A stretch of DNA of 64,000 nt from Lytechinus pictus. Taxonomy: Eukaryota. Below, piece by piece: positions 33,626 through 42,445 of this stretch. Both the position numbers and the translations under genes were made by a program. The notes under the pieces were generated by a model. That model searched no databases. It was not told the origin of the DNA and worked only from the letters and a program-made list of their open reading frames with translations. Every line of letters begins with the position of its first letter. Position 1 is the first letter of the stretch. The DNA is taken from positions 26,414,001 through 26,478,000 of the forward strand of contig NC_087251.1 in the NCBI RefSeq assembly GCF_037042905.1, written 5' to 3'.

Positions 33626-34437
33626 TGTGTGTGTGGGTGTGGGTGTGTGTGTGTAATTGAGTTTTGTCAGATATGTATCAGATATGATTGAGCACTTTTA
33701 GAAACGTACGTCGACATAGACGACTGGTACGAGATGGCATCATTTTCTGGCCTGCCATATGCCTCAGGTCCTCACACATGTCGACTATCAGAATAGAGAA
33801 CCTCGCCACATCCATTCTGCGGTTCTCCTAAACCATAGCCGACGTGCAAGTGAGTGACGTCATTTTAACCGCTCAAGCTCAACATGAAGATCAACCTTTC
33901 CCTTTTAAAACACAGTTTTCAGTGACTTTTCACAATATTAATGTAAGTTGTACGATGCATTATGTTTATCATATTTGAAATTGCTTTCTGATCTCCAAAA
34001 TATATCCCAACTCGCGTAAAAAGGAATCAAAGCAAGTGAAAGGGCAAGTGTGTGCAAGTTGCACCTTCGCAACACCCGACCGGGTCGCCAGGCGATGGTA
34101 CGTCAGATCTTCCAGGTCAGGCAGCATGTCATGACCCGCTGGTTATCATGCTTTTTCACGTGGACGTATGTACACCTACAATTAAAGTGAAATCTGAAAT
34201 ATTTGCATCTGTAGTGAACAAGGGCAGAGAACGACATTGACTTGAACGATCAGACAACTGCAACGCCGTACTCGTTCACTGCTCCTAAAACTCTATTATT
34301 TACGTCTAGGACAGACCTTTAACGTCACCATCCAAAAGACGTGACTGGGGATCAAACCAAAAACCTCTGTATCAAGTTGTAACTTTCCCACATAGCTTGG
34401 ATCACTAGGTGCATGCCTAATTTACATGTACTCAGCC
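33626..34437 (-). mobile_element. Older copy of the 7SL-headed SINE, split by an insertion
   Basis: 33626-33689 and 34295-34437 are collinear with 41342-41525 (gagttttgtcaga...gatatgatt | atttacgtct...ctttaacgtc...cccacatagc.tggat). Confidence 0.8.
33690..34294. mobile_element. ~600-bp DNA element inserted in the SINE (ATT duplication)
   Basis: The intact SINE reads gatatgATTatttacg; here it reads gatatgATT|gagcacttttag ... ctaaaactct|ATTatttacg. Short imperfect TIR, CpG-rich body. Confidence 0.65.
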
Positions 34438-40760: not shown

Positions 40761-41341
40761 TATGAATCGATCATATCTGATTTTTGAACAGCGCCATCAT
40801 GAGTGCAAAGCAAGACAATTTGCTGAAACAAGCCTTGCAAATTTTTATATCAAAACAAACTGAAAAATGAAACGAAGAGAATATTATATCGCTGCGTAAT
40901 GAACGAACATTATATTGGATTACGGTTTACAAAAAGTCGCCATTAAATAGGTTATCACCACCTATGCAGAGCATTTCAAAAAATAAAAAAATCATCATCT
41001 AAAATGCAGCCCCGCCCCCTTGACGCCAGGGGGCCACATTTTGTCTTCCTTTGTCTTTATTTTTTCTTTTTTTTCTCCCAGCCCCACCCCCCTCGCTCGT
41101 CCCGGAAACCGCCATTTTTTTTACTCACCCCCCTAAGATGTTGGTCTAACTTTATCTGTATATACACAAAGGAATGTTTTCATCTTATCGGGCGACTCAT
41201 AAGTCATTAAAAGCATAATTATTATGGAACACAAACTGTATGCTTTTACTTGATTTGAAAAAAAAAAGGTGAGTGGAATTCAAGGAGAACATTTCTCTTA
41301 AAACGTCACAACTTTTTTTCATGATTTCTTGGTGGACAAAC

Positions 41342-41525
41342 GTGTGTGTGTGTGTGTGTGTATTTGAGTTTTGTCAGACGTGTATCAATCAGATATGATT
41401 ATTTACGTCTGGGACCGACCTTTAACGTCGCCATCCGAAAGACGTGACCAGGGCTCGAACCTCTGCATCAATTTGTAACTTCCCCACATAGCATGGATTA
41501 CAGGCGCACGCCACAGCGCCCAGTC
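41342..41525 (-). mobile_element. SINE with 7SL (SRP Alu-domain)-like head, B-box, Deu-domain-like core and (CA)n tail
   Basis: Minus strand reads GACTGGGCGCTGTGGCGTGCGCCTGTAATCCATGCTATGTGGGG...GAGGTTCGAGCCCTGG-TCACGTCTTTCGGATGGCGACGTTAAAGGTCGGTCCC...(CA)n. A second copy lies at 33626-34437. Confidence 0.75.
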
Positions 41526-42445
41526 AAATGGTTCCCGAACATTCGGGAGTCGTTGAGGGCACTATGATGCTAATAATTTGTTATCAGTAGAGTTCAATCT
41601 CATTATATTGATTGATTGTTGATTTGTTTTATATTTTATGCATCCATAAATAGATACATGTATTAACAATCAATAAAAAGATAGACAATTAAGGTAAACA
41701 AAATTGATGTTCTGATTTTTTTTAAATAAAAAAATACCTGTAAATATATCAAGATACTATTTTAACTGGCACATCCCAAGTGGATTTAACCCTCTGATCT
41801 GTGTATTAACATACAGATCAGTGATTTACCCCCCCCCCCCCCCCTGTTCAGAACGGATTTATGACACTGTAATAAATTAACCAAAAAACAACAACAATTT
41901 ATATAGGTGGTAAAAGAAGAAGACAAAGTCATAAGAGGTGGATAAAATCCACCTCTCTCTATGTGACAAGTGGATAAACAAGGATAAGTCACAAGGGGGC
42001 GCTAGACTACTTATCTTGTAGGAACGCATACTGTACCTCTCATCGCGGGACTTATCGATGGCTGAATTAGCATAATGTAGTTTGTTTTGAATTCAAAGCG
42101 CGATACAATCTTTGAATGAGGCCCACCGAAATCACTGGCTAATGTCGAGGTAGCCCTATTTTTACCTTAGAGTTTATCACTCAAAGAATGGGTCGAATAA
42201 TTGATATTTTGAAATAATGACAACCCCCCCCCCGCCCCCCCCAAAAAAAAAAGGAATAAAAAATAGAATAAAGACAAAATATTACGACTTCAAAATTTGT
42301 GAATAAACAGAGGGGACGAACAATGTTGAAAGTATAACCACTAAACGAACCATAATTAAGTTACAGGGCAGTAGGCAGGATACGACGGGGTTCTGAATTA
42401 TAAAAAGTGAACCTTTCATAGATTCGGATCCAGCTTTTGCTGAAG

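Follow-up and report, generated by a model that had tools for sequence, protein, structure and literature searches.

A probable sea urchin SINE family joining a head from the host's 7SL RNA to a Nin/Deu-like body

Well-defined short interspersed elements (SINEs) whose heads derive from 7SL RNA, the SINE1 class, were known only from Euarchontoglires before a hagfish family was added (Kojima 2020, PMC7245038); a shrew-mole family has since followed, in a paper that calls independent 7SL lineages 'extremely rare' (Vassetzky et al. 2026, PMC13023118), according to the accessible parts of both papers. The accessible text of the second also states that all known 7SL SINEs, the hagfish one included, keep both ends of 7SL after a deletion of about 183 nt. 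A 46-nt 5′ Alu domain is reported to bind SRP9/14, and by deletion mapping in human cells it turned out to be both necessary for and able to promote Alu retrotransposition (Moldovan et al. 2025, PMC12199147, in the portion available). Here we describe a SINE on the minus strand of a 64,000-nt stretch of the sea urchin Lytechinus pictus genome (contig NC_087251.1, positions 26,414,001 to 26,478,000; hereafter the window), belonging to an assembly of 811.7 Mb in 368 contigs that was searched for relatives. It is very likely a genuine, recently active sea urchin SINE family with a chimeric 7SL head on a Nin/Deu body and a tail of the stringent type.

In its design the element recalls hagfish SINE1-1_EBu (Ebu1-1), which in the accessible text of PMC7245038 is likewise an independent 7SL head outside supraprimates, fused to an older SINE. 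Both carry a microsatellite tail other than poly(A) and, in the urchin SINE putatively, a 3′ region specific to a long interspersed element (LINE), which would mean dependence on a 'stringent' non-L1 LINE, and both are young families of about 10^3 copies (2363 in hagfish in the accessible part of PMC13023118). However, the hagfish SINE is described as having both the 5′ and the 3′ 7SL regions with a central deletion, bipartite RTE-derived parts and an (AAC)n tail, whereas the urchin SINE has only 7SL nt 1-46, followed by a B box outside the 7SL part, a putative core of Nin/Deu type and a stem-loop with (CA)n, and its host is an echinoderm. With Alu, B1, FLAM, Tu and the shrew-mole Urop it shares the start at 7SL +1 and the retention of helices 2-4 with the UGUAAU turn, and its 7SL part has the same length as the minimal 46-nt Alu domain given in the available portion of PMC12199147. 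The mammalian SINE1 elements are built from 7SL sequence alone, with the central deletion of about 183 nt, the 3′ strand of the Alu domain, poly(A) and L1, none of which is found in the urchin SINE: it has no likeness to 7SL past nt 46, and its tail is (CA)n behind a stem-loop. The use of poly(A) and L1 is a mark of the mammalian families only; the hagfish member is also without them.

The full-length copy in the window lies at 41342..41524 on the minus strand and consists of 164 nt followed by a 19-nt (CA)n tail, with 97.6% identity to the family consensus. Read from 41524 to 41342, it runs through ACTGGGCGCTGTGGCGTGCGCCTGTAATCCATGCTATGTGGGGAAGT, a linker with GGTTCGAGCCC, GTCACGTCTTTCGGATGGCGACGTTAAAGGTCGGTCCC, a 3′ region from CAGACGT to ACGTCTGACAAAACTCAAATA, and the 19 nt of (CA)n; the head ACTGGGCGCTGTGGCGTGCGCCTGTAATCCATGCTA has its first base at 41524, and the G at 41525 belongs to the flank. 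All of the features listed in the first-pass annotation of the window, namely the head, the B box, the core motif and the (CA)n tail, are thus present on that strand. The consensus, built from 30 copies with flanks, is 165 nt long without gaps and has no run of four T.

The 5′ module (41478..41524, minus strand) corresponds to the complete 5′ domain of the Alu domain in signal recognition particle (SRP) RNA, with helices 2, 3 and 4 and the UGUAAU turn, as judged by an Rfam model, identity to host 7SL and predicted hairpins; the 7SL-type A-box region lies within it. Rfam was run at gathering thresholds on the whole window, which gave no match, and in E-value mode (E ≤ 10) on positions 41250-41650, where RF00017 (Metazoa_SRP) was the best of five matches, covering 41478-41524 on the minus strand with model positions 1-44 (29.8 bits, E = 4.1 × 10−6). 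Locus L038, a copy representing a subfamily, scored 34.1 bits against the same model positions (E = 1.3 × 10−7, seven matches at E ≤ 10). No tRNA or 5S model was among the five and seven Rfam matches of the two copies, and ARAGORN found no tRNA in the window and none on any SINE copy in 60 loci.

To compare the head with the host's own 7SL RNA, the genome was searched with RF00017. The 25 matches scored, out of 6077 candidates, comprised seven full-length 7SL genes (272-283 bits) and 18 short matches (32-35 bits); three of the short ones were inspected and all were SINE copies. Consensus nt 2-32 are identical at 31/31 positions to nt 1-31 of the 7SL gene at L037 (contig C12), and the head is identical at 28/28 positions to the other six host genes. 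The local alignment to host 7SL ends at nt 45-47, in GGAAGT, the closing strand of helix 2, and for L038 there is a 46-nt match with one gap. Past nt 46 the likeness of the SINE to 7SL is no better than chance, with 237 and 243 of 500 shuffles scoring equally. In helix 2, the SINE and L037 have the letters ACT...AGT in common while the other six genes have ACC...GGT, so that both sides of the pair are changed, and elsewhere the head has letters of the host that are not those of the Rfam consensus, such as GUUG against gcgg in the model. These host-specific letters argue for birth in this lineage and against contamination or transfer from a vertebrate, in keeping with the independent origin that the first-pass annotation had proposed. 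When folded at minimum energy, the 47-48-nt heads form two hairpins that the 5′ ends of host 7SL form as well. Taken as a sequence comparison, the data support the derivation of the first 46 nt of the SINE from the host's own 7SL RNA.

An alternative is that the head derives from a tRNA and resembles 7SL by chance. Some tRNA-derived heads in molluscs start GGGCGCTGTGGCG, and that of the gastropod SINE Lsa_3 begins GACGGGCGCTGTGGCG (published supplement). The agreement with host 7SL, however, is perfect over 31 positions and carries on across the UGUAAU turn and both helix 4 and helix 2, and the SRP model matches at E = 10−7 where neither Rfam nor ARAGORN reports a tRNA. Host alignment and RF00017 match together rule out a tRNA-derived head, and we give the idea next to no credence. 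The 7SL origin proposed in the first-pass annotation is therefore upheld: the match to host genes is exact, and neither of the outcomes that would have spoken against it, a better score as tRNA or 5S or a lack of likeness to host 7SL, was seen. Its description of the element as 'Alu-like' overstates the case, since of 7SL only the 46-nt 5′ domain is kept and the element lacks the 3′ half of the Alu domain that Alu, B1 and the hagfish SINE possess.

Behind the head lies a linker (41450..41477, minus strand; consensus nt 47-76) with the B-box-like GGTTCGAGCCC at 41451-41461, a putative RNA polymerase III (pol III) B box. The linker may be what is left of a tRNA-derived head. Of the seven host 7SL genes, six (L031-L036, on contigs C10 and C1) carry a B-box-like GGTTCGAGTC and behind it (A/G)GGTGTC, with differing spacers, at 15-50 nt past the T-run, and L037 is without this piece. 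In the three genes on C10 this downstream piece resembles a 3′ tRNA half with a terminal CCA and is followed by a second T-run. The B-box-like piece may be a promoter or processing element of echinoid 7SL genes.

The occurrence of GGTTCGAGTC with GGTGTC past the terminator in six of seven genes raises a second account of the head, in which all of it would come from a 7SL gene locus, the 7SL and the downstream B-box element having been joined by deletion of 7SL from nt 47 to its end, with no tRNA-derived head involved. When the linker was aligned with the 3′ flanks of 7SL genes, scores of 16-21 were obtained, which 1-44 of 500 shuffles equalled for the five element-bearing genes tested and 116-296 of 500 for L037. 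However, nearly all of the score comes from the 11-nt B box, a feature common to any pol III type-2 element, and the match between linker and flank is not extended in a multiple alignment. In addition, the flanks compared are paralogous, so that the tests are not independent, and L037, the gene nearest to the SINE head, has no downstream element. We consider this origin improbable.

The element is one of a large family. Searching the genome with the 184-nt stretch gave 1435 first-look candidates, and 39 of the 41 matches scored were 97-98% identical and spread over many contigs. Exact words of 21-22 nt spanning the junction of 7SL and linker and that of core and tail were found 989 and 1074 times, respectively, and the terminal 22-mer 946 times; the reversed controls gave 0 in each case. 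With a length of about 165 nt, the family falls within what SINEBase (PMC3531059) expects of a short (<1 kb), interspersed and non-tandem repeat on many contigs, and the 946-1074 exact matches are likewise in line with its copy-number test. Contig C1 has 74 core/tail matches, and for 49 of them the 7SL junction lies upstream at a distance of 64-74 nt, the spacing being 64-65 nt in 25 cases, 71-72 nt in 23 and 74 nt in one. The two spacing classes indicate two subfamilies of approximately equal size, which are told apart by a 7-nt duplication of GTTCGAG. The 30 best copies vary from the consensus chiefly at nt 1, 2 and 40 and have mostly unrelated flanks, and older copies at 79-93% identity show an unchanged architecture. 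The repeat family that the first-pass annotation deduced from a second copy at 33626-34437 is thus borne out by about 1000 exact junction words. That second copy is real, old (82% identity) and on the minus strand, but it is not one piece: its 5′ part (SINE nt 14-128, 82% identity) lies at 34295..34417 and its 3′ part at 33626..33689, made up of SINE nt 126-165 (33654-33689) and a (TG)n tail (33626-33653), and the two are split by an unrelated 605-bp repeat (33690..34294) that is not part of the SINE.

These numbers also bear on the proposal that there is no SINE family at all, and that the copies are 7SL pseudogenes or one-off chimeric retrocopies made by template switching of a SINE or LINE RNA onto 7SL. 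Chimeric retrocopies of small RNAs are known (PMC7245038, accessible part). One-off events, however, would not be expected to leave an identical 7SL/linker junction at 989 places, two subfamilies with 64-nt and 71-nt spacings in about equal numbers, and older copies, 79-93% identical, that keep the architecture; against pseudogenes stands the finding of only seven full-length 7SL loci among the 25 scored RF00017 matches. This proposal can practically be dismissed in favour of a dispersed SINE family.

Not all copies are dispersed. Four on C1 (22736739-22744351) lie about 2.5 kb apart within a larger tandem repeat, and three at C2:17634176-17634646 stand head to tail about 175 nt apart (17634279, 17634450 and 17634626). 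Five of the 30 best copies (L006, L008, L010, L021 and L024) sit no more than about 6 bp from one and the same position in another repeat, ...ctaccataccggcc^tgcaaaagacccgatcgatagctcat..., and their different junctions and short duplications suggest repeated independent insertion at a preferred target. In four copies on different contigs and at unrelated loci (L051, L060, L068 and L070), the B box is separated from the Nin/Deu-like core by a shared insert of about 165 bp, some 260 nt upstream of the core in every case, which resembles a miniature inverted-repeat transposable element (MITE) and has the inverted ends GGGGAGCGTTTCATCAA... and ...TTTCATGAAACGCTCCCC. Either a composite of SINE and MITE kept retroposing, or the MITE has a strong site preference. 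At L055, another copy of the 605-bp repeat has a SINE inside it that is 5′-truncated and starts at nt 83.

The core of the body, GTCACGTCTTTCGGATGG(C/T)GACGTTAAAGGTCGGTCCC at 41411..41449 (minus strand), was tentatively assigned to the 5′ portion of the conserved Nin/Deu SINE domain by comparison with published SINE rows by eye, and the motif GTCTTTCGGATGGCGACGTTAAAGGTCGGTCCC occupies 41411-41443. The Nin domain is part of the Deu domain, short versions of about 70 bp exist, and sea urchins have SINE2-3_SP (PMC4824008, PMC5804259). [quoted passage not shown] As in DeuSINE and Nin-DC elements such as SINE2-3_SP and BivaDeu-SINE1, a block like GTCACG..TCTTTCGGATG.GAC.TTAAA...GGTCCC appears, by eye, to stand directly behind the head. 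The heads reported for known members are tRNA or 5S and none is 7SL, whereas the urchin SINE carries a 7SL head and about 40-50 nt of the domain. An earlier head swap within the DeuSINE superfamily, from tRNA to 5S rRNA, is found in SINE3 and AmnSINE1.

Because a sea urchin Nin/Deu SINE is already catalogued, the family itself may be an entry in existing collections, for example the counterpart in L. pictus of the Strongylocentrotus purpuratus DeuSINE SINE2-3_SP filed as tRNA-derived, in which case only the 7SL reading, or nothing, would be new. SINE2-3_SP is given a tRNA head and the partners CR1Y_SP/CR1X_SP in the accessible parts of PMC3747384, PMC4824008 and PMC5804259. On the other hand, the curators of Repbase and SINEBase list 7SL SINEs for supraprimates and hagfish only (Kojima 2020, Kojima 2024, as far as the accessible text of these papers goes), the shrew mole having been added in 2026. 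The literature searched contained no sea urchin or invertebrate 7SL SINE, and four 15-18-nt strings of the element occurred in no paper, entries of Repbase, Dfam and SINEBase lying outside this search. We regard prior cataloguing as unlikely, if the most serious of the competing explanations. On the literature searched, and with SINE2-3_SP compared by description only, the urchin family looks like a further independent origin of a 7SL SINE and the first in an invertebrate. The range assumed in the first-pass annotation, Euarchontoglires and hagfish, agrees with this literature apart from the shrew mole, now added in the accessible part of PMC13023118.

In the tail stem-loop (41375..41411, minus strand), CAGACGT pairs with ACGTCTG around an inner 6-bp helix; the predicted fold of 7 bp and 6 bp has a minimum free energy of −13.0 kcal/mol (z = −2.15), equalled by 6 of 200 shuffles. 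It is followed at 41342..41374 (minus strand) by the terminal 14 nt, ACAAAACTCAAATA, and the (CA)n microsatellite at 41342-41360. A candidate target-site duplication of 4 nt, TTTG, is present at 41525..41528 and again at 41337-41340, which is too short to be significant by itself. Across the family, however, direct repeats of at least 6 nt at the junctions were found in 7 of 30 copies compared with 2.3% of 870 mismatched pairs of upstream and downstream flanks, and the mean repeat was 4.27 nt compared with 2.30 nt in the mismatched pairs. The 5′-truncated copies have many different stop points with unrelated DNA upstream. The upstream flanks often end in AC or CAC, an uncounted impression, and such ends could prime on the (CA)n tail.

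Expression was assessed in three RNA-seq runs depleted of ribosomal RNA, under one coded species label and at about 6% of each run. DNA-like data sets under two coded organism labels contained only 6-17% of the sampled words and were not used to judge how far the family extends beyond this species. Between 1050 and 1359 reads per run mapped to the element, with the first mate about 15 times as frequent on the plus strand (depths of 1204.8 against 80, 1240.9 against 66.9, and 898.7 against 61.4). Under the usual stranded protocol, this excess indicates RNA of the SINE sense strand. The depth on the flanks of the window copy was zero, and at 41430, 41493 and 41516 the reads show the letters of the consensus and not those of the window copy itself. 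The 7-nt insertion of the long subfamily was seen in 40-257 reads per run, so both subfamilies are present in the RNA, and 13-27% of the reads run on into unlike sequence. The RNA fits sense-strand transcription of many copies, and the family appears to be still active and expressed.

Several observations weigh against the reading of the element as an active 7SL-headed SINE on a Nin/Deu body. The folding energy of the 48-nt head gives no signal relative to shuffles (z about 0). SINEBase asks for at least 60% identity over at least 60 nt, and the head is 93-100% identical to 7SL but over 45-47 nt; as in SINE1, this head does derive from the 5′ end of 7SL. The other route in SINEBase is experimental pol III transcription, for which strand-biased RNA is what we have. 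In the RNA data there is no pile of starts at +1 and the depth drops about 100-fold from tail to head, which leaves transcription from the element's own promoter as a possibility, although the drop is partly a mapping artefact of the window copy's own differences and of read length. The strand reading moreover presumes a library whose first mate reads the strand opposite to the RNA, and the coded species label of the runs was not matched to the species of the window. As to the body, the Nin/Deu assignment is a comparison by eye, and the linker obtained no tRNA score in the Rfam search. Patterns of the exact core or of the B-box/core junction with a non-7SL head, a weak filter for tRNA-headed siblings, gave 20 and 2 matches, all of which were rejected as 7SL-headed copies with indels, copies with the MITE insertion or truncated copies. 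Since no tRNA-headed sibling was found, 'head replacement', which the first-pass annotation proposed to have taken place on a Deu-type body, rests on analogy; the Nin/Deu-like core is there by eye, and the replacement is still conjecture.

The partner LINE sharing the 3′ tail, whose search the first-pass annotation had called for, adds to these points. Patterns of the exact tail with non-SINE letters upstream gave 10, 0 and 0 matches, and all 10 were truncated or indel-bearing SINE copies. Exclusion patterns of this kind are weak because a LINE family has one fixed sequence and passes or fails as a whole, with a 10-18% chance of passing. The terminal 22-mer, at 946 matches, is not commoner than words of the SINE body. 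Places with the tail only (four on C1 and six found earlier) were all SINE copies that were mutated, deleted or 5′-truncated, the DNA upstream of them being unrelated. Four LINEs, from 150 scored of 12,239 reverse transcriptase candidates, had no likeness to the tail in their 3′ regions, the sole match being a simple CA run. The partner was therefore not found in the patterns, the tail-only places or these four regions. A stem-loop with a microsatellite tail fits the tails of CR1- and L2-type LINEs, none with this tail being among those sampled. As regards retroelements in general, all 150 of the 12,239 first-look candidates from the genome search with Pfam RVT_1 that were scored were above the cut-off, and the many uninterrupted RVT_1 frames of 1000-1700 amino acids make many retroelement families look intact.

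Under the reading we favour, a genuine 7SL-headed SINE, pol III would start at 7SL +1, the A of ACTGGGCG, with the 7SL-type A-box region and the downstream B box as promoter. Since the consensus has no run of four T, transcription would pass through the tail. By analogy with Alu, the 46-nt 5′ domain probably binds SRP9/14 and carries the RNA to ribosomes. A 'stringent' LINE, plausibly of the CR1/L2 kind, would recognise the stem-loop and (CA)n tail through its reverse transcriptase, copy the SINE RNA into nicked DNA and leave short variable target-site duplications and 5′-truncated copies. The family was probably born within the echinoid lineage, a Nin/Deu-type SINE and 7SL RNA having been joined by recombination or a template switch.

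Some of the loci recovered are of interest in their own right. Diverged SINE copies (79-87% identity) lie 35-45 bp upstream of the three tandem 7SL genes on C10 (L031 1289-1453, L035 1293-1457 and L036 1314-1457), where upstream promoter elements would be expected, and their presence at each gene indicates that the insertion is older than the gene duplication. At L042, two identical 72-nt tRNA-like genes with anticodon TCA (283-354 and 693-764), each with a T-run, form a tandem duplication. ARAGORN labels them tRNA-SeC, for which they are presumably too short, judging by the usual selenocysteine tRNA; a suppressor-like tRNA and a repeat derived from a tRNA are two possible readings. No usable coding open reading frame (ORF) is present in the window, and a 294-amino-acid sulfotransferase ORF adjoins the SINE copy at L005. 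Compared with public proteins, it is 70% identical to Lytechinus variegatus, 69% to L. pictus, 57% to Strongylocentrotus purpuratus, 45-48% to Diadema and 35-39% to sea cucumbers. The nearest proteins are thus those of sea urchins, in agreement with the invertebrate host named in the first-pass annotation.

The hagfish (2020) and shrew-mole (2026) 7SL SINEs were each reported as unexpected, and an echinoderm 7SL SINE would carry the phenomenon beyond vertebrates. The fuller claim is evenly balanced in our judgement: that this is the first 7SL SINE lineage outside vertebrates and the fourth independent birth of such elements, with 7SL trimmed to exactly the 46 nt that bind SRP9/14 and a LINE other than L1 reading the stem-loop/(CA)n tail. 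For the Nin/Deu superfamily, 7SL would be the third kind of head after tRNA and 5S. The family would also offer an unusually clean natural experiment, having only the 46-nt 5′ domain and yet a tail and a kind of LINE quite unlike those of Alu, and it raises the testable question of whether SRP9/14 binding and ribosome docking help SINEs generally or only those with L1 partners. If the reading is true, docking at ribosomes through SRP9/14 would help SINE retroposition in general, whether the LINE is a stringent one or L1, and would date back at least to the SRP of the deuterostome ancestor.

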